From a virus (taxonomy: Duplodnaviria; Heunggongvirae; Uroviricota; Caudoviricetes): a stretch of 7,839 nt of DNA. Below the pieces are notes generated by a model. The model searched no databases and had not been told where the DNA came from. It worked only from the letters and a program-made list of their open reading frames with translations. Positions 1-7,839 of the stretch are shown in pieces. The translations under genes were made by a program, and so were the position numbers. Location of the stretch: positions 1-7,839 of the IMG/VR virus record IMGVR_UViG_2690315922_000017; one strand, 5' to 3'. The stretch's first letter is position 1. The number at the start of each line of letters is the position of its first letter.

Positions 1-57
1 TTAAAATTCCATTTGTATTTGTTCAGAACGCTCGGTCTTGCACACCGGGCGTTTTTT
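1..57 (+). ncRNA. OOP-like antisense RNA, 3' portion with intrinsic terminator (5' end and promoter lie beyond the window start)
   Basis: Plus-strand hairpin CGCTCGGT(29-36)/ACCGGGCG(44-51) with one G-U pair and a 7-nt loop, followed by TTTTTTATT (52-60). The segment GTTCAGAACGCTCGG...CCGGGCGTTTTTTATT closely resembles my recollection of the 3' end of phage lambda OOP RNA, and it lies antisense to the 3' end of cII exactly as OOP does in lambda. Confidence 0.5.
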
Positions 58-300
58 ATTGGTGAGTCCATCAAGCGCATACTTAAAAGCCCTGCTAATC
101 GGACTGATGTCTGATGCCATTCCAAAAGCACACAAGACCGAAGCAATAAATCTCCAGTCCGTTCTGCTTATCTTCGATTCATGACAGCCAATCATCTTTG
201 CCAGACCGCGCTGGGTAAGCGTTGACAGGTTGATGAGTAAATCTGTTTCTGCGCGATCAACGTCGCGCTGTGATAGTTTGCTGTAACTTGTTTGTTCCAT
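1..300 (-). CDS. cII: CII-like transcriptional activator (lysogeny establishment)
   Basis: Minus-strand ORF of 99 aa with ATG at 300. The C-terminus ...TNKKRPVCKTERSEQIQMEF and the HTH-like centre (...ESKISRTDW...) match recalled lambda CII (...TNKKRPAATERSEQIQMEF). It sits downstream of cro and nutR on the pR transcript. Confidence 0.85.
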   Translation of the reverse strand: MEQTSYSKLSQRDVDRAETDLLINLSTLTQRGLAKMIGCHESKISRTDWRFIASVLCAFGMASDISPISRAFKYALDGLTNKKRPVCKTERSEQIQMEF

Positions 301-310
301 TTCTTATGAT
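278..310 (+). promoter_or_regulatory. pRE-like CII-dependent promoter: TTGC(278-281)-N6-TTGT(288-291) flanking a poor -35, with -10 TATGAT (305-310)
   Basis: The direct tetranucleotide repeat lies inside cII codons 2-8 on the opposite strand and ends 9 nt from the cII start codon complement, the same geometry as the lambda CII site. A 17-bp spacer leads to TATGAT, which would drive plus-strand transcription antisense to cro and towards cI. Confidence 0.4.
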
Positions 311-328
311 TTCCAATAGTGAATATTA

Positions 329-350
329 CGCATCTGTTGATGCGTTTTTT
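329..350 (+). terminator. Hairpin plus T6 on the plus strand (possible attenuator of pRE transcript); function uncertain
   Basis: CGCATC(329-334), loop TGTT, GATGCG(339-344), then TTTTTT(345-350). On the minus strand the hairpin is preceded rather than followed by the homopolymer run, so it is terminator-like only for plus-strand RNA. Confidence 0.3.
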
Positions 351-352
351 GT

Positions 353-390
353 GGGGACGAATCATCCCCGACCTGATTGTTTAAAGAGCG
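353..390 (-). promoter_or_regulatory. nutR (boxA CGCTCTTTAA + boxB hairpin GGGGATGATTCGTCCCC) for N-dependent antitermination
   Basis: Read on the minus strand: boxA-like CGCTCTTTAA (390->381), an 11-nt spacer, then a 17-nt hairpin (369->353) identical to the hairpin at nutL. It lies between cro and cII, as in lambda. Confidence 0.6.
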
Positions 391-397
391 GTGTTAC

Positions 398-622
398 TTA
401 TGCTGCCTGATTCGGTTTTGGAAACAGGTGTGGCAAATCGGGGCGAATTTCGTAAGCCTTGATCTGCCCTCCAGTGGCGTTAACGATGGCGGTAACTTTC
501 TCTGGAGAGACCAACCCGCCTTTCAGCCATTTGTGTACTGCTGGCTGCGTTACACCACACTTGTCGGCAAGGCGTTTTTGGCTACCGACAATTTTCAAGG
601 CTCGTTGAATTACTAAATTCAT
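398..622 (-). CDS. cro: Cro-like repressor, YdaS-type HTH (Cro/CI superfamily)
   Basis: Minus-strand ORF. The preferred start is the ATG at 622 because AAGAGG sits 7 nt upstream; the ORF-track start at 643 and the Met at 628 have no usable SD. The HTH segment ...GSQKRLADKCGVTQPAVHKWLKG...ATGGQIKAYEIRPD resembles recalled E. coli Rac prophage YdaS. It is first on the pR transcript, divergent from cI. Confidence 0.8.
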   Translation of the reverse strand: MNLVIQRALKIVGSQKRLADKCGVTQPAVHKWLKGGLVSPEKVTAIVNATGGQIKAYEIRPDLPHLFPKPNQAA

Positions 623-655
623 GAGCATACCTCTTGTGGTCATTACTTATAACCA

Positions 656-726
656 AAGATAACTCAAGTTATAAAAAATAGCAATAACCTTTGTTATTTT
701 ACTTTGGATAACCGTAGTTATAGATT
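656..726. promoter_or_regulatory. oR region with three operators (659-672 ATAACTCAAGTTAT; 684-697 ATAACCTTTGTTAT; 708-721 ATAACCGTAGTTAT), divergent pR and pRM
   Basis: Three 14-bp ATAAC-N4-GTTAT palindromes with 24-25 bp centre spacing. pR on the minus strand: -35 TTGCTA (684->679), 17-bp spacer, -10 TATCTT (661->656). pRM on the plus strand: -35 TTTACT (698-703), 17-bp spacer, -10 TAGATT (721-726), placing +1 at about the cI ATG (leaderless, as in lambda). Confidence 0.6.
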
Positions 727-733
727 TGTGGGT

Positions 734-1441
734 ATGAAAACATTCGCAGAAAGACTAAATGCAGCCATGAGCTCAGCAGGTGTGTCGCAATCACAGCTTG
801 CTGACATGGTTGGAATATCTCAGCCAGCCATACAGAAGATGTCATCCGGTAAAACAAACGGATCTCGCAAGATGGTTGAATTAGCCAATGCTTTAAAAGT
901 ACGCCCTGAATGGCTTAGCTCTGGTATTGGTGAAATGAGGGATGGTACACATGAAGAACCATCCAATGTCCGTGAATCATCTTTAAAAGCTGTGGTATGG
1001 GAAGATATTAAAAGAAACGATGACGAGTTTGTCGCGTTGCCTCTTCTTAACGTTTCGCTTTCAGCTGGAAGCGGTAGCTGCGAGCTAGAGGAATCATCAG
1101 AGTTCTCTTTGGTTTTCAGAAAGTACTATCTGAAAAAGATGGGGGTATCTGAAAGATCAGCCAAGCTAGTTAGGGTTGTAGGGCAAAGCATGGAACCAAC
1201 GCTTCACGACGGAGATGTTGTTGGCGTTAACACACAAGATACCACAATCAGAGATGGTAAAACCTACGCTATTTGCCAGTCTGATTTGTTACGAGTAAAA
1301 ACATTAATCGCCACCCCAACATCGGTGATAATCAGATCAATAAATCGCGAAGAGTACCCAGATGAAGTAATGGATAGAGATGAATTTCATGAAACCGTAA
1401 GGATTATTGGCAGAGTATTCTGGTCGTCTCATAGTTGGTAA
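734..1441 (+). CDS. cI: CI-like prophage repressor (N-terminal HTH, C-terminal LexA/S24-type autopeptidase domain)
   Basis: HTH ...QSQLADMVGISQPAIQKMSSGK..., Ala-Gly cleavage site within LSAGSGS, Ser in GQSMEP and Lys in LRVKTL (S24 Ser/Lys dyad). Start chosen at ATG 734; the ORF-track start at 704 is a TTG inside operator 3. Confidence 0.85.
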   Translation: MKTFAERLNAAMSSAGVSQSQLADMVGISQPAIQKMSSGKTNGSRKMVELANALKVRPEWLSSGIGEMRDGTHEEPSNVRESSLKAVVWEDIKRNDDEFVALPLLNVSLSAGSGSCELEESSEFSLVFRKYYLKKMGVSERSAKLVRVVGQSMEPTLHDGDVVGVNTQDTTIRDGKTYAICQSDLLRVKTLIATPTSVIIRSINREEYPDEVMDRDEFHETVRIIGRVFWSSHSW

Positions 1442-1481
1442 CCGATAATCAGAAGAAGACTTACGGAAGTGCGGAGGGATA

Positions 1482-1778
1482 ATGGAATTTCTGATAGTTC
1501 TTGTTGTTGTTTTGGTCATCATTCTTTTTGTTTTGCTAAGCATTAGCAAAAAGCTATCTCAAATGATTGAACATAGCTCTAATCGCGCAAAAGAAGAAGA
1601 CCATCTAATTGATATAAAAGAGATTCTCTCTGATATAAAAATCACATTAGATGAAATAAAATACACAACAGATCTAATTGAACAGTATAAAATACCAACC
1701 ACAAACGAGAGAAAAGCAATAGATCAATATCGTATTGACTTAGAAATCGACGAAATGCTAAGCAAAAGAAAAGACTAA
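1482..1778 (+). CDS. Small single-pass membrane protein with charged helical C-terminal domain; moron in the rex position (function unknown, candidate exclusion/defence protein)
   Basis: ATG 1482 preceded by GGAGG (1473-1477). N-terminal hydrophobic segment FLIVLVVVLVIILFVLLSI, then a K/E/D/I-rich helical region. About 30% GC by hand count, much lower than flanking genes. It is 40 bp downstream of cI and followed by an intrinsic terminator. Confidence 0.7.
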   Translation: MEFLIVLVVVLVIILFVLLSISKKLSQMIEHSSNRAKEEDHLIDIKEILSDIKITLDEIKYTTDLIEQYKIPTTNERKAIDQYRIDLEIDEMLSKRKD

Positions 1779-1782
1779 AAAC

Positions 1783-1810
1783 ACCCGGCCTCAGCGCCGG
1801 GTTTTCTTTT
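1783..1810 (+). terminator. Rho-independent terminator ending the cI-moron transcription unit
   Basis: Stem ACCCGGC(1783-1789)/GCCGGGT(1796-1802), 6-nt loop, then TTTTCTTTT. The reverse complement also has a T-run, so it may be bidirectional. Confidence 0.7.
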
Positions 1811-1931
1811 CCTGCCGTCCCCCACCCAATCAACCATCCTCATCATAGACAAGCATCAAGCCAAAGGTAGCACCTTCACCCCGCACGCAAGCCTTCAAAC
1901 ACCAATCAATCAGCAACATTTACAAAAATAA

Positions 1932-2017
1932 AATACCTTTGTTATCCATCACTTATAACTTACTTACCACAAAATATAAACTAAGTTATTGACCACACCT
2001 ATAACCTAAGTTATCTT
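1932..2017 (+). promoter_or_regulatory. oL/pL: operator sites (1932-1945 degenerate, 1976-1989 ATAAACTAAGTTAT, 2001-2014 ATAACCTAAGTTAT) and pL -35 TTGACC (1989-1994), -10 TATCTT (2012-2017)
   Basis: Same ATAAC-N4-GTTAT operator family as oR. The promoter uses a 17-bp spacer and the same -10 hexamer as pR, with operators overlapping the -35 and the spacer/-10. It is oriented towards nutL and N. Confidence 0.55.
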
Positions 2018-2062
2018 TAAGCCATCAGCAGGACGCAGGAAGCCAAACGGAACAGATTGGCA

Positions 2063-2101
2063 GGCTCTTTAACATTGATGGAATGGGGATGATTCGTCCC
2101 C
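2063..2101 (+). promoter_or_regulatory. nutL (boxA GCTCTTTAA 2064-2072; boxB hairpin GGGGATGATTCGTCCCC 2085-2101)
   Basis: The boxB 17-mer is identical to the reverse complement of 353-369 (nutR). boxA matches the CGCTCTT(T)A consensus. It lies about 40 nt downstream of the predicted pL start and upstream of N. Confidence 0.6.
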
Positions 2102-2256
2102 ACCAAAGAGAGGTTGGCTTTGGGATTTGATGAATGCGCAGGTCGATGCGCTACCACTTAGCGGTGAGCACCTGCATTTTGGGCAGGATGGATAGCCGCA
2201 ATAAGGGGATCGACACATGACATCAAATCACCAAAGTCAATCATCGGAGGTATCCA

Positions 2257-2463
2257 GTGAAAGCAAGAGAGATTCGCAAACTCGAACGCGCTCGTAAGCA
2301 CAAAGAGGCGACAGCAAAACGTAAAAATATTGACCGTGTTTCAATGGTGGTTTCGCTAGCAGGAGCGAATAGGAAGAAGGTTGAATGTGGTTCGTGCTGC
2401 CTGCCAAACGTAGCCATTTACGCGGCAGGCTACCGGAAATCAAAACAACTGACGGCGAGGTGA
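2257..2463 (+). CDS. N: N-like transcription antitermination protein (arginine-rich motif at N-terminus)
   Basis: GTG start at 2257 with GGAGG (2246-2250) 6 nt upstream; an in-frame stop at 2218-2220 precludes a longer ORF. N-terminal ARM KAREIRKLERARKHKEATAKRK. The C-terminal ...IDRV..SLAG..K.VE.GS..LP.VA.YAAG.RKSKQ.TAR resembles my recollection of P22 gene 24 (N). Confidence 0.7.
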   Translation: MKAREIRKLERARKHKEATAKRKNIDRVSMVVSLAGANRKKVECGSCCLPNVAIYAAGYRKSKQLTAR

Positions 2464-2484
2464 CGATCTCCCGCCGTCGAGGCA

Positions 2485-3024
2485 CTAAATTAACTCATCA
2501 GCTTTACCAGCAAAGCGCATATAACACTCATGGAACCAGACGTCAGGTATAACAAATTTCTCTTTACCTGACGCGCTGTAAGTCACACCTGAGCGATGGA
2601 GAAGGCCTTTTCTCATAAGAGATAAAGCGACCGGATCGCCGTGCTTAAGTACGATTTTGTTATTTGCCATAACAGCAAATGCTAAAACCTCTTTTTCCTG
2701 AATACTCAGAGAATTGAACAGGCGCTCAGTCTCCACAATTACTTTAGCTTCATCTCTCTTACTGAGATATTTTTTATATCTTTCTGAAGATGCCAGAAAG
2801 ATAAACTCCATCACCCTGTTCAGAACATAACTGATACACAAAAGCATTGCGTAATACATCCAGTGTTCTGGAAGTATTTCAGGGTTCCTTATATCTACCC
2901 ACTCTTTAATTGATGCTGGGGTGATTATTATCAAGGCAATTAAAATAATAAGCATATGAATTAACTGTTGTAGCGTAAGACCACGCAGGAAGAAACGTAA
3001 TAGTTCCTGCCACCAGTTACTCAT
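2485..3024 (-). CDS. sieB: SieB-like superinfection exclusion (abortive infection) membrane protein
   Basis: Minus-strand ORF of 179 aa with ATG at 3024 and GGAG 8-11 nt upstream. The MSNWWQELLRFF N-terminus is followed by two hydrophobic helices. It is oriented opposite to N and immediately downstream of it, as sieB is in lambda and P22. AT-rich. Confidence 0.7.
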   Translation of the reverse strand: MSNWWQELLRFFLRGLTLQQLIHMLIILIALIIITPASIKEWVDIRNPEILPEHWMYYAMLLCISYVLNRVMEFIFLASSERYKKYLSKRDEAKVIVETERLFNSLSIQEKEVLAFAVMANNKIVLKHGDPVALSLMRKGLLHRSGVTYSASGKEKFVIPDVWFHECYMRFAGKADELI

Positions 3025-3039
3025 CGGTGAATCTCCATC

Positions 3040-3090
3040 ATTCTCTCTGTAGGGGTGAATAGAGTTTATCCGATTTCTCGCTGTAGGGGT
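3040..3090. repeat. Direct repeat pair TCTCnCTGTAGGGGT (3042-3056 and 3076-3090) upstream of sieB
   Basis: Two copies match at 14 of 15 positions, 34 bp apart, 18-66 bp upstream of the sieB start codon on the minus strand. Confidence 0.6.
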
Positions 3091-3150
3091 ACACGAGAAC
3101 CACCGAGCCTGATGTGGTTAAAAGACAGGCATACGAATAAACACTGCACT

Positions 3151-3178
3151 GTGTATTCATTCCAACGAGTGAATACAC
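3151..3178. repeat. Perfect 9-bp inverted repeat GTGTATTCA-N10-TGAATACAC
   Basis: Arms at 3151-3159 and 3170-3178 in the sieB-cIII intergenic region. Possible protein-binding palindrome or RNA hairpin. Confidence 0.6.
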
Positions 3179-3240
3179 GGAGCAATGTCGATCGTAACTA
3201 AACAGGAGCCGACTTGTTCTGATCATTGGAAATCTTCTTT

Positions 3241-3265
3241 GCCCTCCTGTGTGAGGGCCTTTTTA
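3241..3265 (+). terminator. tL1-like intrinsic terminator within the pL operon upstream of cIII
   Basis: Stem GCCCTC(3241-3246)/GAGGGC(3253-3258), loop CTGTGT, then CTTTTTAT. The reverse complement has no T-run, so it is plus-strand specific. Confidence 0.4.
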
Positions 3266-3327
3266 TATGCATACCAATAACGTTTCACTCGAGGCGTTTT
3301 TCGTTATGTATAAATAAGGAGCACACC

Positions 3328-3468
3328 ATGCAATATGCCATTGCAGGGTGGCCTGTTGCTGGCTGCCCTTCCGAATCTTTACTTGAACGAATCACCCGTA
3401 AATTACGTGACGGGTGGAAACGCCTTATCGACATACTTAATCAGCCAGGAGTTCCCCAAAATGGATAA
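3328..3468 (+). CDS. cIII: CIII (FtsH inhibitor stabilising CII)
   Basis: ATG 3328 with AAGGAG 6-7 nt upstream. The 46-aa product MQYAIAGWPVAGCPSESLLERITRKLRDGWKRLIDILNQPGVPQNG is near-identical to recalled lambda CIII. The ORF-track start at 3226 is an unsupported N-terminal extension. Confidence 0.8.
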   Translation: MQYAIAGWPVAGCPSESLLERITRKLRDGWKRLIDILNQPGVPQNG

Positions 3469-3574
3469 AACACTTATGGCTATCCAGACTAAATTCACTA
3501 TCGCAACTTTTATTGGCGATGAAAAGATGTTTCGTGAGGCCGTCGAAGCCTACAGGAAATGGAGGTCAAAATGA
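3461..3574 (+). CDS. kil: Kil-like host cell division inhibitor
   Basis: The 37-aa product MDKTLMAIQTKFTIATFIGDEKMFREAVEAYRKWRSK matches recalled lambda Kil (MDQTLMAIQTKFTIATFIGDEKMFREAV...). Its start overlaps the cIII stop by 8 nt. The ORF-track start at 3335 is an out-of-context extension. Confidence 0.75.
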   Translation: MDKTLMAIQTKFTIATFIGDEKMFREAVEAYRKWRSK

Positions 3575-3759
3575 TTCCGGTAGAACTGGCGAAAACTCCA
3601 GAGTTAAGTCGATTAAAAAGAGAATATCACATTGCTGAGGCTCGTTACTGGCGTAAAGCGGGAGATAAATCAAAGAAACAACTTTGTTTATGGCAGGCAC
3701 AAAGAGAGCGCATGAATGAGCGCGAGTTTCTTTCCTCCCCATCCGAATTACCATTCTGA
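3571..3759 (+). CDS. Hypothetical small basic protein (62 aa), translationally coupled to kil
   Basis: ATG 3571 overlaps the kil TGA (ATGA) and has GGAGG (3561-3565) upstream. Product MIPVELAKTPELSRLKREYHIAEARYWRKAGDKSKKQ...; no family recognised. Confidence 0.5.
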   Translation: MIPVELAKTPELSRLKREYHIAEARYWRKAGDKSKKQLCLWQAQRERMNEREFLSSPSELPF

Positions 3760-3767
3760 GGTGAATT

Positions 3768-4475
3768 ATGGATTTGAATAAATTCGATGAGCCATTCAGC
3801 CCCGAAGATATCGAATGGCGAATACAGCAAAGCGGTAAAACACGCGATGGCAAGGTGTGGGCTATGGTGCTGGCTTATGTCACGAACCGGGCAATCATGA
3901 AACGCCTGGACGATGTTTGCGGCAAAGCAGGATGGCGCAATGAATACCGCGATATTCCCAACAACGGCGGAGTTGAATGCGGCATATCAATCAAGATTGA
4001 TTCCGAATGGGTAACCAAATGGGATGCTGCTGAAAACACGCAGGTAGAAGCCGTCAAAGGTGGTCGTTCAGGTGCAATGAAGCGCGCTGCCGTTCAGTGG
4101 GGAATCGGTCGGTATCTGTATAACCTTGAGGAAGGTTTCGCACAAACATCTCTCGATAAAAAGCAGGGGTGGCACAGGGCAAAACTGAAAGATGGAACAG
4201 GATTTTACTGGCTCCCTCCATCGCTGCCGGGATGGGCAATCCCAGCATCAGATAACAAACCATCACCAGAAAATACCAACCAGAAATCTCCATCGGTTGA
4301 CTGCGAACAAATCCTGAAAGACTTCAGCGATTATGCGTCAACAGAAACTGACAAGAAAAAACTCATCGAGCGTTATCAGCGTGACTGGCAATTAATGGCT
4401 GGCAACGAGGAGGCGCAGGCTAAATGCGTTCAGGTAATGAACATCAGAGTTAACGAACTAAAACAGGCGGCATAA
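3768..4475 (+). CDS. Rad52/Sak-family single-strand annealing protein (phage recombinase)
   Basis: Motifs KRLDDVCGKAGWRNEY and GAMKRAAVQWGIGRYLY are typical of Rad52-family phage annealases. GAGGTG SD; stop is immediately followed by the ssb ATG. Confidence 0.75.
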   Translation: MDLNKFDEPFSPEDIEWRIQQSGKTRDGKVWAMVLAYVTNRAIMKRLDDVCGKAGWRNEYRDIPNNGGVECGISIKIDSEWVTKWDAAENTQVEAVKGGRSGAMKRAAVQWGIGRYLYNLEEGFAQTSLDKKQGWHRAKLKDGTGFYWLPPSLPGWAIPASDNKPSPENTNQKSPSVDCEQILKDFSDYASTETDKKKLIERYQRDWQLMAGNEEAQAKCVQVMNIRVNELKQAA

Positions 4476-4991
4476 ATGGCAAGCAGAGGCGTAAATAAGG
4501 TGATCATTATTGGTCGCCTTGGTCATGATCCAGAAATCAGATATTCACCATCAGGAACGGCATTTGCAAACCTTACCGTTGCTACGTCAGAACAATGGTG
4601 TGATAAGCAAACTGGAGAGCAAAAGGAGCAGACGGAGTGGCACCGTGTGGTAATGAGCGGGAAACTGGCAGAAATTGCCAGCGAATATCTGCGAAAAGGT
4701 TCTGAGGTTTATCTTGAAGGCAAATTGCGGACAAGAAAATGGCAAGATCAAAGCGGACAGGATCGGTTCACTACCGAAGTCATCGTGGGCGTTGGTGGAA
4801 CCATGCAAATGCTTGGTGGCAAGCAAGGAGGAAATGAACAGTCTTCTCATCAGCGAAATAACGGTCAGCAACAAAGACAGCAACCTCAGCAGCAAGGGAA
4901 TCACAGCGAACCACCTATGGATTTTGACGACGATATCCCCTTTGCACCAGTAACTCTCCCCTTCCCTCGTCACGCTATTCACGCAATTTAA
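4476..4991 (+). CDS. ssb: Single-stranded DNA-binding protein SSB, with 15-aa extension beyond the canonical DDDIPF tip
   Basis: N-terminal OB-fold region [23 protein letters not shown]...TEWHRVV...[10 protein letters not shown] closely resembles E. coli SSB, followed by a Q/G-rich linker and ...[11 protein letters not shown], then [15 protein letters not shown] before the TAA. Confidence 0.85.
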
Positions 4992-5004
4992 TCAGGAGAA
5001 AATC

Positions 5005-5301
5005 ATGCCAGCACCTCTGTATGGTGCGGATGACCCGCGCCGCTGTTCCGGCAATTCCATATCGGAGGTGCTGGATAAATTCAGAAAAAACTACGACCGG
5101 ATAATGTCTCTACCGCAGGAAACGAAAGAGGAAAAGAAATTTCGCCACTGTATATGGCTTGCAGAGAAAGAAGAACGAGAGCGAATTTACCAGACATCAA
5201 TCCGACCATTCTGCAAAGCAACATATACCCACTTCCCTGAATATATCGACCCGCGCCTGCGTAATTACCGCTCACGCTATGGCGCTATCAGTAATGACTG
5301 A
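5005..5301 (+). CDS. Hypothetical protein (98 aa)
   Basis: ATG 5005 with AGGAG (4994-4998) 6 nt upstream, same strand and operon context. No family recognised. Confidence 0.55.
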   Translation: MPAPLYGADDPRRCSGNSISEVLDKFRKNYDRIMSLPQETKEEKKFRHCIWLAEKEERERIYQTSIRPFCKATYTHFPEYIDPRLRNYRSRYGAISND

Positions 5302-5311
5302 GGAATTAACA

Positions 5312-5602
5312 ATGAAAACAATGAAGCTAAACATCGACCTCGGAAAATACGTTATTACCGGAACCAAACACGATCTGATTCTTAGCGAAAGAGGAATTAT
5401 CAAAGAAGGCGAGAATGCAGGGAAAGAAACGCTCAGTCGTATCGGTTATTACAGCAAGTTTGAGCATCTGGTTAAAGAGTTATGCAACCGTGAAATCCTG
5501 TTATCTCAGGCGCAGACGCTACAAGATATTCAGCAGCATATCGAAACTTTAGGCATGTCACTTAGCATGGCTATTGACCAGTTCGTTGAGAGTAAATCAT
5601 GA
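5312..5602 (+). CDS. Hypothetical protein (96 aa)
   Basis: ATG 5312 ([17 protein letters not shown]...) with GAGG upstream, 10 nt after the previous stop. The ORF-track start at 5159 overlaps the preceding gene and is unlikely. Confidence 0.55.
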
Positions 5603-5763
5603 GAGGACTTGCATACAATCCCGGCATTCTTCCGGCAGAAATGATTATTCGCCAACGCGTAAAGCCAATGCCATCGAGAGAGGAATTGCTTAAGCGAAAC
5701 TCGTTTCCTTCAGTGAATCAAAACAAATATCTGAATGCAATGTGGCGGAGTGGGAAGAAATGA
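5599..5763 (+). CDS. Small hypothetical protein (54 aa), below ORF-track size cutoff, translationally coupled on both sides
   Basis: ATG 5599 overlaps the upstream TGA (ATGA), and its own stop at 5761-5763 overlaps the next ATG at 5760. Product [54 protein letters not shown]. It fills an otherwise unexplained gap in a tightly packed operon. Confidence 0.35.
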
Positions 5764-6269
5764 AACAAATGTCACTAATTGAGATGGATGGTTTCCTGAA
5801 AGGTAAATGCATACCATGTAATTTAAAGGTTAACGAAACAAACGCTGAATATCTTGTCCGTAAGTTCGGTGAACTTGAATCAAAACTCAACGAGCAGCGT
5901 GAGTATTACGAAGGTGTTATCTCGGATGGAAGTAAGCGCATAGCAGAACTGGAAGCCCGAGAGGTGACTTTGCCAGCAGAGAAATTCTGTCAGGCGGATT
6001 ACCCAGGCATCCTGCTGTGGGCAGAACCCGTTGCTTATATTTTCAAACATCCGGCCGGAAAATTATTCTGGGCTTTGACGGATGAAAGCAATAAAGAACA
6101 ATCGGACGTTATTCCTGTTTATGCCGCCCCTCCAGTGCCAGTAGTACCGGAAGAAAAACCAATGCCTAATCCTCTTAGCATGTACGCGGTTGATGCTGTT
6201 GCCGCTATTGCAGAGGTGAGAGGATGGAACGCCTGCCGTGCAGCCATGCTTAAGGGGGATAAATCATGA
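5760..6269 (+). CDS. Hypothetical protein with predicted coiled-coil segment (169 aa)
   Basis: Start preferred at ATG 5760 (ATGA overlap with the upstream ORF); an alternative in-frame start is at 5742. Helical segment ...[34 protein letters not shown].... Its stop overlaps the next start (ATGA at 6266-6269). Confidence 0.55.
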
Positions 6270-6625
6270 TTAATCGAACCAAACTGGAGCACATCCTCGA
6301 GTATGCCAGGCAGCAGAGGCGCTTTGGCCAGCTTTGTAAAATTCTGCCAGGAGATATGGTTGAAATCGTGGAGATTGCCATGCGTAAGACTGGCAACTCT
6401 CCAGTAACTCCGGATAGTTGGATAAGCTGTAGTGAGCGAATGCCAAATGATGGTCAGCACGTAATTATTTTATGTGATGGTGCATTCGTTCTTTATGCGC
6501 AATATCGAGACGGAGAGTTTTTCGATATTGTCCGCAATGGTGATGAATTTTTCGAAACACAGAGTCGCAATGTAACCGACTGGATGCCTCTACCAGAACC
6601 GCCTCAGGAGGTTAACCGTGGCTAA
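6266..6625 (+). CDS. DUF551-like prophage protein
   Basis: C-terminal pattern W-x-SCSERMP...W-MPLPEPP is recalled as characteristic of DUF551 proteins of enterobacterial prophages. Family assignment is from memory. Confidence 0.55.
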   Translation: MINRTKLEHILEYARQQRRFGQLCKILPGDMVEIVEIAMRKTGNSPVTPDSWISCSERMPNDGQHVIILCDGAFVLYAQYRDGEFFDIVRNGDEFFETQSRNVTDWMPLPEPPQEVNRG

Positions 6626-6902
6626 CCTGCAACTTGCCGTCAAAGGTGAATACTTCGATGCCATGATTCGCGGGGAGAAAACGGAAGAGTATCGCCTGTG
6701 TAATGACTACTGGAATAAGCGAATTATGTTCCGCGAGTATGACCGACTGATTATCACAAAGGGATATCCGAAGCGCGACGATTCCAGCCGCAGAATTGAT
6801 GTTCCGTATGACGGATATGAAATCAAGACAATCACACATCCGCACTTCGGTGATAAACCGGTAAAGGTGTTCGCGATAAAGGTGAATATCGGCAATGAAT
6901 AA
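6618..6902 (+). CDS. ASCH/PUA-like (DUF3850-like) small protein
   Basis: GTG start at 6618 with AGGAGG (6605-6610) upstream, overlapping the preceding gene by 8 nt. The N-terminal KGEYFDAMIRGEKTEEYR resembles the ASCH-domain signature. Family assignment is tentative. Confidence 0.55.
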   Translation: MANLQLAVKGEYFDAMIRGEKTEEYRLCNDYWNKRIMFREYDRLIITKGYPKRDDSSRRIDVPYDGYEIKTITHPHFGDKPVKVFAIKVNIGNE

Positions 6903-6906
6903 CAAT

Positions 6907-6933
6907 CCTCGCACTCGCGGGGATTTCTTTTAT
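6907..6933 (+). terminator. Intrinsic terminator-like hairpin after the ASCH-like gene
   Basis: Stem CCTCGC(6907-6912)/GCGGGG(6917-6922) with one G-U pair, loop ACTC, then ATTTCTTTTAT. Confidence 0.45.
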
Positions 6934-6974
6934 CTGAACTCGCTACGGCGGATTTTGTTTTATGGAGATGATAA

Positions 6975-7142
6975 ATGCACTTCCGAGTCACAGGTGAATG
7001 GAATGGAGAACCATTCAACAGAGTTATCGAAGCAGAGAACATCAATGACTGCTATGACCACTGGATGATATGGGCGCAGATAGCACATGCAGACGTAACC
7101 AATATTCGAATTGAAGAACTGAAAGAACACCAAGCCGCCTGA
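6975..7142 (+). CDS. Small hypothetical protein (55 aa)
   Basis: ATG 6975 with GGAG (6964-6967) 7 nt upstream. Product MHFRVTGEWNGEPFNRVIEAENINDCYDHWMIWAQIAHADVTNIRIEELKEHQAA. Preferred over the overlapping minus-strand ORF 6960..7166, which has no RBS and is antisense to the operon. Confidence 0.4.
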   Translation: MHFRVTGEWNGEPFNRVIEAENINDCYDHWMIWAQIAHADVTNIRIEELKEHQAA

Positions 7143-7169
7143 TGGAGGTTTTTTTATTGGAGACAAGAA

Positions 7170-7514
7170 ATGTCAGATTTGTCTATGAAGGTTTTGAAAT
7201 GGCAATCGACTGGCGATGTCGGCATCAGTAGCGCAACTCTTGCCTCAATCGCATGTGGACTGAAAAAGAATATCTATGGTCATCACTTCGGCGCTCCACA
7301 TGACGCAGCAGACTTCCGGCGATGCGTTGCTCTTGTCGAGCAGATTCCAGAAATCAGAGCTTCATTCGACAAAGTTGCAAAGCGCGTTCCGGCATTCAAA
7401 GGCATCCTCAACGAATGGGATTCCCTCGTTGCTCTGTTGAAGTCTGAAATGAAGATACACGGAAACAAAGCACCAGAGACTTACAGAAGAATCAGCGAGC
7501 TACGCAAGGACTAA
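7170..7514 (+). CDS. Hypothetical protein (114 aa)
   Basis: ATG 7170 with GGAG (7159-7162) upstream. No family recognised. Confidence 0.55.
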   Translation: MSDLSMKVLKWQSTGDVGISSATLASIACGLKKNIYGHHFGAPHDAADFRRCVALVEQIPEIRASFDKVAKRVPAFKGILNEWDSLVALLKSEMKIHGNKAPETYRRISELRKD

Positions 7515-7573
7515 CCACAGCCTCACACTCGATGAGGCCCGTTCATTTCTCAAGATATCCAGACCTACCATTG

Positions 7574-7595
7574 CCGCATCAATGCGGTTTTTTAT
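7574..7595 (+). terminator. Rho-independent terminator upstream of xis
   Basis: Stem CCGCAT(7574-7579)/ATGCGG(7582-7587) with a very tight loop, then TTTTTTATT (7588-7596). Confidence 0.5.
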
Positions 7596-7638
7596 TGCCT
7601 GATTTGCAGGTTCGATTCCCTATTCGGAGATAGCACTC

Positions 7639-7839
7639 ATGCAACACGAACTACAACCTGATTCACTGGTTGATTTGAAATTCATCATGGCCGATACTGG
7701 CTTCGGTAAAACCTTCATCTATGACCGGATTAAGTCCGGCGACCTGCCAAAAGCCAAAGTTATCCACGGGCGAGCAAGATGGTTATATCGTGACCATTGT
7801 GAATTCAAAAATAAGCTCTTAAGCCGCGCCAATGGGTAA
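7639..7839 (+). CDS. xis: Excisionase-like / AlpA-family winged-helix DNA-binding protein
   Basis: ATG 7639 with GGAG (7626-7629) upstream. The 66-aa product has the pattern ...IMADTGFGKTFIYDRIKSGDLPKAKVIHGRARWLYRDHCEFKNKL, typical of phage excisionase/AlpA HTH proteins. It is at the distal end of the pL operon where xis precedes int in lambdoid phages; the window ends at its stop codon. Confidence 0.6.
   Translation: MQHELQPDSLVDLKFIMADTGFGKTFIYDRIKSGDLPKAKVIHGRARWLYRDHCEFKNKLLSRANG

Follow-up and report, generated by a model that had tools for sequence, protein, structure and literature searches.

The window analysed here, a 7,839-nucleotide (nt) stretch of Caudoviricetes DNA (IMG/VR record IMGVR_UViG_2690315922_000017, positions 1 to 7,839), comes from a lambdoid prophage, where it spans the immunity and early-left region; directly downstream of its cI repressor gene lies an open reading frame (ORF) for a 98-amino-acid (aa) protein, here called ORF98 (1482-1778, plus strand). 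Our analysis showed that ORF98 is a real gene under purifying selection, located on a segment that is replaced by unrelated cargo in phages with the same cI gene and the same downstream terminator, and its product is predicted to carry a strongly conserved acidic helical hairpin behind a single N-terminal membrane anchor. A role in the lysogen, namely the exclusion of other phages, is tentatively proposed.

ORF98 is a gene under purifying selection

An earlier reading of the DNA letters without database searches (the sequence-only reading) had placed ORF98 where lambda carries rexA and rexB, and this was borne out: the gene lies between cI (734-1441) and the left operators OL (1932-2014) with the N gene beyond them, and is therefore in the rex position. 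The estimate of about 30% guanine plus cytosine (GC) against GC-richer neighbours was also accurate, the GC content of ORF98 being 30.3% (0.27 at third codon positions, GC3) compared with 44.6% for the window and 42.9% for cI; only 0.15% of all 297-bp segments have a GC content this low, and the minimum for the whole window falls at ORF98. The start codon is 40 nt 3' of the cI stop and is preceded on the plus strand by a Shine-Dalgarno sequence, GGAGGG (1473-1478), which is strong, as had been claimed, though its spacing is short (3-5 nt 5' of the ATG).

ORF98 matches PHROG 18389 from end to end (residues 1-98 to profile positions 1-98 of 98, E 2.3e-59). Comparison with the Citrobacter freundii homologue (73% identity; synonymous divergence, dS, 0.73) gave a ratio of nonsynonymous to synonymous substitution rates (dN/dS) of 0.20 overall, made up of 0.47 for the anchor, 0.38 for the linker and 0.07 for the hairpin, and ORF98 is thus a real gene under purifying selection and not a chance reading frame.

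Predicted architecture of the product

The product had been described as a single-pass membrane protein with a heptad-like helical tail, and both the hydropathy and the heptad pattern agreed with that description. Residues 3-21 (mean Kyte-Doolittle hydropathy 3.73) form the only hydrophobic segment, an anchor (FLIVLVVVLVIILFVLLSI) from which polar and charged residues are absent, and this is followed by a linker (23-42) and the conserved acidic helical hairpin (43-97), the tail having an isoelectric point (pI) of 5.2. Isoleucine occupies every heptad 'a' position of helix 2 (45, 52, 59 and 66), within the literal heptad repeat IKEILSD/IKITLDE/IKYTTDL. The AlphaFold2 model, built from a 10-sequence alignment, has helices at 2-38, 45-68 and 74-96 with a mean predicted local distance difference test score (pLDDT) of 82; its predicted template modelling score (pTM) was 0.29, a low value of the kind that a flexible chain of three helices should give. 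At the DNA level, a 21-bp tandem repeat inside the gene (1631-1673, two copies, 77% match) corresponds to IKITLDE/IKYTTDL, suggesting that the coiled coil grew by internal duplication.

These features recur across the family, where even members with about 30% identity keep the full-length architecture. The N-terminal flank of the anchor has a net charge of zero or below and the C-terminal flank a charge of +0 to +3 (K/R) in each of the 18 aligned members, and all 18 tails are acidic (pI 4.2-5.4). The flank charges therefore predict an N-out/C-in topology with a cytoplasmic hairpin, and ORF98, which has neither a signal-peptide n-region nor a lipobox, is predicted to be a single-pass inner-membrane protein. 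Linker length varies between members and the hairpin aligns without gaps, its conserved C-terminal block reading IKY(T/V)TDxIExYK(L/I)PxxxERxxIDQxRIDxEIDxM with Y69, P72, D81 and E88 invariant. From the combination of a featureless and least constrained anchor, a linker of free length and a near-frozen hairpin, we infer that ORF98 is most likely a membrane-tethered binding module rather than a pore.

The allele in the window carries Thr at residue 74 (codons 73-74, 1699-1704; PTTNE instead of PTPNE), beside the invariant Pro72 in the hairpin turn, and Pro occupies this position in all other close family members and in most distant ones.

Family and distribution

As judged by database searches, ORF98 belongs to a very small orphan family, PHROG 18389, whose annotation names no function. 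A word-indexed search of 5.8 billion proteins returned 11 clusters, all from E. coli or Citrobacter where a host was named, and when 1.84 billion cluster representatives were searched exhaustively with a hidden Markov model (HMM), no more than 14 proteins scored E <1e-3, all of 94-126 aa and none fused to another domain. The exact 98-aa protein is on record as a hypothetical protein of Escherichia albertii, and DNA about 98% identical to the ORF98 region is carried by the Shiga toxin (Stx) 1a-converting phage Stx1a_10051. Such DNA was also found in 98 of the 5426 complete E. coli genomes, O26:H11 strain 11368 and a strain of serotype O111:H8 among them. Every inspected row annotated the homologue as 'hypothetical protein'; in a tblastn search with three family members against 50,697 GenBank phages the only match was Stx1a_10051, in which the gene is unannotated.

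The sequence-only reading had recognised no family and called for HMM and BLAST searches, which matched only PHROG 18389 and no housekeeping or structural family; Pfam, NCBIfam, PADLOC, the PDB and BFVD all lacked a specific match. Scans of ORF98 and 18 family members against Pfam, NCBIfam and PADLOC gave nothing significant, the sub-threshold matches (DUF4446, DUF948 and ZorB) stemming from hydrophobic or coiled-coil composition, and among the 5027 defence-protein models of PADLOC-DB v2 the best was ZorB (E 0.038), over the hydrophobic segment only. ORF98 did not match the SieB profile (PF14163), although the neighbouring gene at 2485-3024 on the minus strand is a SieB homologue; YebO was not matched in the Pfam scans of ORF98 or of the 18 members; and there was no Pfam, PHROG or PADLOC match to RexA or RexB, nor any similarity to RexB, holins or the transmembrane effectors of PADLOC. 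A profile search of PDB sequences returned designed coiled coils only, Foldseek gave no PDB match and nothing significant in BFVD, and a literature search for the RefSeq accession found nothing. A search of species-representative genomes with a degenerate DNA pattern for D-x-IEKYKLP yielded 24 stretches; none of these scored as encoding a family member with the family HMM, and the known taxonomic range stayed the same.

Matches restricted to residues 20-98 were considered as possible truncated genes and this was rejected, because all of the IMG/VR loci concerned encode the full 98 aa; the short matches result from low-complexity masking. Rare E. coli variants do exist (proteins P0010, P0005 and P0011), among them an anchor-less 75-aa form starting MITGVWKYRGK, a form with a 5-residue deletion in helix 2 and a truncation, and these suggest occasional decay of the gene in some prophages.

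An exchangeable cassette in the cI operon

Alignment of the junctions with a locus that has the same cI (L011) delimited the cassette (1444-1782, plus strand), which is replaced by other cargo in phages sharing this cI and the terminator. The window and L011 are homologous up to 1443, two bases after the stop codon of cI, and again from exactly 1783, where the terminator stem begins; between these points L011 carries 770 bp encoding two unrelated unknown proteins (phrog_13858 and phrog_12503), whereas the cassette in the window holds a single ORF. Horizontal exchange of this segment, which the sequence-only reading had supposed, is thus supported by a locus with the same repressor gene.

The intrinsic terminator (1783-1811, both strands) consists of a 7-bp stem with six G-C pairs at 1783-1802 followed by TTTTCTTTT, has a free energy of -13.7 kcal/mol (z -3.5 against shuffles) and scores on both strands, with a T-run on each. 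Its sequence, ACCCGGCCTCAGCGCCGGGTTTTCTTT, is identical in all three cargo types, and the region 1782-1829, terminator included, is found at 88% identity in H-19B, BP-4795 and many Stx phages. The third cargo type is that of L013 (E. coli 23CRST049), where a LexA-family repressor is followed, at positions 948-3025, by a cassette with a DUF3024 protein (a PDC-S43 candidate), a RuvC-like protein and a Ser/Thr kinase, and the same terminator comes after it. Matches of this kinase to PD-T4-6 models reach 1e-37, and in PADLOC it is closest to mad6 (6e-50). An identical terminator downstream of different cargo marks it as a backbone element, and ORF98 therefore as a swappable cassette of the cI operon instead of a self-contained moron. 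The terminator is predicted to end the cI operon as the functional equivalent of lambda tImm, and lies outside the imported segment. Given its minus-strand score, it might also keep leftward transcription from reading into ORF98 and cI.

In H-19B (L080, 2017-3500), as in L013, the slot is occupied by the DUF3024, RuvC-like and kinase genes together with a 54-aa ORF, and in the GenBank record of H-19B the corresponding 1.5 kb between cI and the terminator is without annotation.

The moron concept of Juhala and Hendrix combines deviant base composition with a promoter and a terminator of the gene's own (PMC3594210), and the earlier description of ORF98 as having a typical moron signature did not hold up. 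Composition is deviant (30.3% against 44.6% GC) and the segment is present or absent between relatives, being replaced in L011. The gene does not have its own terminator, as backbone homology restarts at the terminator's first base; the statement that ORF98 is closed by an intrinsic terminator is accordingly right about the structure (1783-1802) and wrong in assigning it to ORF98, since loci with other cargo share it. Nor was a convincing promoter found, the sole candidate being a 9/12 consensus match inside cI at 1407-1435, from a scan that gave 4 sites where shuffled sequence gave 7.0, and in most homologues gaps of 0-24 nt leave no room for one. ORF98 is better called operon-embedded cargo, like rexAB.

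Homologous loci and expression

Related loci, collected in part by a search based on the close 8-sequence family alignment, carry family members 32-73% identical to ORF98 and were found in Citrobacter, in an NCBI assembly of unknown species and on contigs from metagenomes and IMG/VR. All 10 divergent homologues lie 0-54 nt 3' of a repressor gene with helix-turn-helix (HTH) and Peptidase_S24 domains, on the same strand; every lambdoid homologue locus has a divergent cro and a lambda-type cII upstream, and an N-type gene follows wherever the contig reaches far enough. The spacing is at its tightest in L016, where the homologue's TTG start abuts the cI stop codon, and in L014, where the two genes are 1 nt apart and the ribosome-binding site is inside cI; a ribosome-binding site and tight spacing from cI are retained in many backbones, and in most loci the GC content of the homologue is below that of its own cI and of the locus. 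The repressors fall into at least eight groups at <60% identity in the DNA-binding domain, and similarity between the ORFs does not track similarity between the repressors: the window and L002 share 73% identity in the ORF and 35% in cI, whereas L007 and L018 share 39% in the ORF and 75% in cI. A linkage between ORF98 and sieB was considered and rejected, as most homologue loci lack sieB.

ORF98 is placed so that any cI transcript runs through it. The 40-nt gap between the two genes contains no terminator and no structure beyond chance (z +0.46), and this, together with the 0-54 nt spacing of the homologues and the translational coupling in some of them, favours co-transcription with cI as the likely mode, in agreement with the sequence-only reading. 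By analogy with lambda, a putative promoter for repressor maintenance, pRM (TTTACT-17-TAGATT; 698-733, plus strand), was located, its -10 hexamer (721-726) preceding the first base of the cI start codon by 7 nt, although it scored below the threshold of the promoter scan; such a promoter would yield a leaderless cI mRNA as in lambda, and ORF98 is probably expressed from it in lysogens. The beginning of the cII coding sequence is overlapped by a TTGC-N6-TTGT motif (278-291, plus strand), at the place where the CII-binding repeats of the establishment promoter pRE are found in lambda, and this candidate establishment promoter would also drive ORF98. An RNA element as the explanation of the region was rejected, Rfam having given only the cIII thermoregulator, located elsewhere.

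Proposed function and alternative explanations

In the mechanism that we propose, ORF98, an accessory gene of the cI operon, would be transcribed in the lysogen from pRM through cI to the terminator at 1783-1802, and a CII-dependent establishment promoter would likewise transcribe cI together with ORF98. The product would insert into the inner membrane N-out/C-in with about two residues outside, presenting its acidic helix-turn-helix hairpin with heptad repeats at the cytoplasmic face, where it would bind some conserved component of the host or of a phage. Infection would then be blocked at or just after DNA entry, that is by superinfection exclusion in the manner of HK97 gp15, P22 SieA or DicB.

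Use of the slot for defence is apparent in L013, where a cI-type repressor and the same terminator flank the PD-T4-6/Stk-type kinase and the PDC-S43 candidate. Lambda RexAB and BstA occupy the same position, the cI-N interval being a documented mosaic hotspot (PMC8585504), and small inner-membrane exclusion proteins expressed from prophages are exemplified by HK97 gp15 and P22 SieA (PMC3594210). A slot that holds RexAB, BstA and Stk-type kinases, taken with these known small exclusion proteins, makes lysogen-expressed exclusion of other phages the most likely role, at somewhat less than even confidence. Several points weigh against it. ORF98 has no similarity to a known defence protein in PADLOC, Pfam, NCBIfam, the PDB or BFVD, and a protein that senses fast-evolving phage proteins would not usually have so strictly conserved a hairpin; such conservation fits a host target equally well and is not necessarily tied to phage exclusion. 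The position next to cI across at least eight repressor types, with coupling, would also fit a role in the lysogeny circuit, and the distant relatives P0020, P0023 and P0025, on plasmid-like or unclassified contigs, adjoin no repressor gene (their settings are Pelagicoccus, a Rep3 plasmid-like contig and a contig with a SHOCT lipoprotein).

A modulator of the lysis-lysogeny switch or of induction, in which the tethered hairpin binds a conserved host factor such as activated RecA, FtsH/HflKC or Lon, is rather unlikely; such a role would parallel that of 434 Hex or the effect of RexA/RexB on the lytic transition, with feedback provided by expression from both the establishment and the maintenance promoter. 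In its favour are the strict position behind S24 (RecA-cleavable) repressors of at least eight DNA-binding types, always with a lambda-type CII, the 0-1 nt gaps that imply translation coupled with cI in some lineages, the very strong purifying selection on the cytoplasmic domain, which suggests a conserved host partner, and precedents in the same slot, namely Hex (PMC3564112) and RexA/RexB, which are reported to aid the lysogenic-to-lytic transition (bioRxiv 10.1101/2021.04.19.439022). However, phages with the same cI and cro carry unrelated cargo instead, so ORF98 is dispensable for this immunity circuit; its alleles are shuffled relative to those of cI, the phage already has the FtsH inhibitor CIII with its thermoregulator RNA, and distant homologues exist without any repressor. 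In a broader form, ORF98 could be a non-defence and unrecognised membrane-tethered part of the lambdoid lysogeny circuit, made along with cI from the establishment and maintenance promoters, its hairpin binding a conserved host regulator at the membrane, such as FtsH/HflKC or activated RecA, and so tuning lysogenisation or induction; the strict position behind at least eight repressor types and the coupling in some lineages are compatible with this, and we regard it as unlikely. If it were true, release of Stx1 phages would also be tuned via induction.

Exclusion by a tethered module must also be set against direct membrane damage. Once infection is sensed, a coiled-coil oligomer might depolarise or permeabilise the inner membrane as an abortive-infection effector, like RexB, holins or small membrane toxins, and the rex position, the single membrane pass with heptads whose beta-branched core residues could drive oligomerisation, and the frequency of small transmembrane effectors in defence systems would all suit such an effector. 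It is nevertheless improbable, given that the anchor offers no polar, charged or small-residue motif to line a pore and is less constrained than the hairpin (dN/dS 0.47 against 0.07), that the one-ORF cassette leaves no partner sensor gene, that the scan found no antisense promoter or antitoxin-like feature, and that similarity to RexB, holins and PADLOC transmembrane effectors is lacking. We give an equally low likelihood to a lysogenic-conversion factor acting on the host, through envelope stress tolerance, transport or virulence-related traits in Shiga toxin-producing E. coli (STEC) or E. albertii. Occurrence in prophages of pathogens (the Stx1a-converting phage, O26:H11, O111:H8 and E. albertii) would agree with conversion, the conserved hairpin suggests a host partner, and bstA, which is also 3' of cI, was first tied phenotypically to virulence (PMC8585504); yet ORF98 is not similar to any protein known from virulence or stress responses, family members are also present in Citrobacter and in lambdoid phages from metagenomes, whose host backgrounds are unrelated, and the documented contents of the slot are phage-directed. 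That the gene is a functionless AT-rich hitch-hiker persisting in a tolerated slot is very improbable: in its favour are the rarity of the family (one GenBank phage, 98 of the 5426 complete E. coli genomes, and 14 clusters in a set of 1.84 billion proteins) and the existence of truncated or anchor-less variants (P0005, P0010, P0011), but the reading is contradicted by the dN/dS values (0.20 overall and 0.07 in the hairpin, at dS 0.73), by retention of the full-length architecture to about 30% identity, and by the ribosome-binding site and tight cI spacing kept in many backbones.

Comparison with known systems

Like lambda rexAB, ORF98 lies after cI and before the operon terminator and OL/N, would presumably be expressed from both pRM and pRE, contributes a membrane component, and is accessory and exchangeable. 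It differs in being one single-pass protein, whereas Rex comprises the cytoplasmic sensor RexA and the polytopic membrane protein RexB, and in having no sequence similarity to them and an anchor that is not channel-like. The closest functional model is HK97 gp15, which is likewise a small inner-membrane protein from a lambdoid prophage and blocks genome entry without touching the outer-membrane receptor (PMC3594210). However, gp15 is a self-contained moron of the tail operon and is related to YebO, whereas ORF98 is in the cI operon, has no YebO or other Pfam match, and is a candidate exclusion factor.

BstA is a cytoplasmic protein of about 300 aa. The gene in BTP1 and its relatives shares with ORF98 a conserved synteny directly 3' of the prophage repressor, an architecture described as 'strikingly conserved' among diverse homologues, in which a Rho-independent terminator comes next (PMC8585504). 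BstA is reported to localise to sites of phage DNA replication, not to the membrane, and causes abortive infection, with the aba element for self-immunity. ORF98 has neither a BstA match nor another PADLOC match. The Stk-type kinase cassette of H-19B/933W-like Stx phages (PD-T4-6 family) is an alternative cargo of the same slot, between a cI-type repressor and the same terminator, but is multi-gene, about 2 kb long, unrelated in sequence and built around an enzymatic effector. Like ORF98 in the proposed mode of expression, 434 Hex is a second protein from the pRM transcript beside the repressor gene (PMC3564112); as described, Hex differs in overlapping the repressor reading frame and acting on RecA-mediated cleavage, with no membrane anchor mentioned.

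Accessory cargo expressed with the repressor from the cI-N hotspot is already well known, and an unknown small gene in this position would not surprise specialists; the protein family and its YK(L/I)P hairpin are not well known.

Organisation of the immunity region

In the rest of the immunity region, cII (1-300, minus strand; PF05269, E 6e-35) and a YdaS/P22-Cro-type cro (398-643, minus strand) diverge from cI, and the right operator region OR, between cro and cI, holds three perfect ATAAC-N4-GTTAT operators (659-672, 684-697 and 708-721). The repressor itself (734-1441, plus strand) has 235 aa with HTH_3 and Peptidase_S24 domain matches, the same 708-nt coding sequence being annotated by RefSeq in E. 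coli genomes. Three further perfect operators make up OL (1932-1945, 1976-1989 and 2001-2014, plus strand) and are overlapped by a pL-like promoter found in the promoter scan (TTGACC-17-TATCTT; 1989-2017, plus strand); altogether the window contains 11 matches to ATAAC-N4-GTTAT compared with 3.5 expected, a number reached by none of 200 shuffles. An N-type antiterminator gene identified by profile matches (2257-2463, plus strand) forms the far boundary of the cI-N interval and is convergent with sieB (2485-3024, minus strand; PF14163, E 3.5e-20; phrog_1301). Beyond these are the cIII thermoregulator RNA (3315-3373; Rfam RF01804, 88.5 bits, E 4e-21), which overlaps the cIII start, then cIII (3329-3468), whose 46-aa product has no Pfam match and whose homologous coding sequence is labelled CIII in RefSeq, and kil (3464-3574), which overlaps the end of cIII; a Rad52-type recombinase, a single-stranded DNA-binding protein (SSB) and an excisionase-like gene follow.

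The segment with nutL and the 5' part of N (2085-2397) is mosaic, having no similarity to the O26:H11 and Stx1a_10051 phages although its flanks are 97-100% identical. N in the window is a protein of only 68 aa that begins at a GTG codon, and its match to Pfam N_peptide is confined to the C-terminal part of that model, whereas N of the O26 phage has 90 aa. The stop codons of N and sieB are 21 nt apart (2463-2485), and the convergent arrangement of these genes is that of lambda.

Significance

The cI-N interval has yielded RexAB, BstA, Hex and Stk-type kinases, and ORF98 adds to these a family without a known relative, hosted by prophages of E. coli (including O26/O111 Stx1a phages), E. albertii, Citrobacter and uncultured hosts. 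As a single 98-aa gene with a clear domain layout and natural isogenic comparators, which have the same cI and terminator and other cargo, it lends itself to experiments on whether the protein excludes phages by a new mechanism at the membrane's inner face or alters the induction of Stx phages. Should a phenotype emerge, the YK(L/I)P hairpin would represent a small binding module of a new type; otherwise ORF98 would be a conserved hypothetical protein in a known hotspot.

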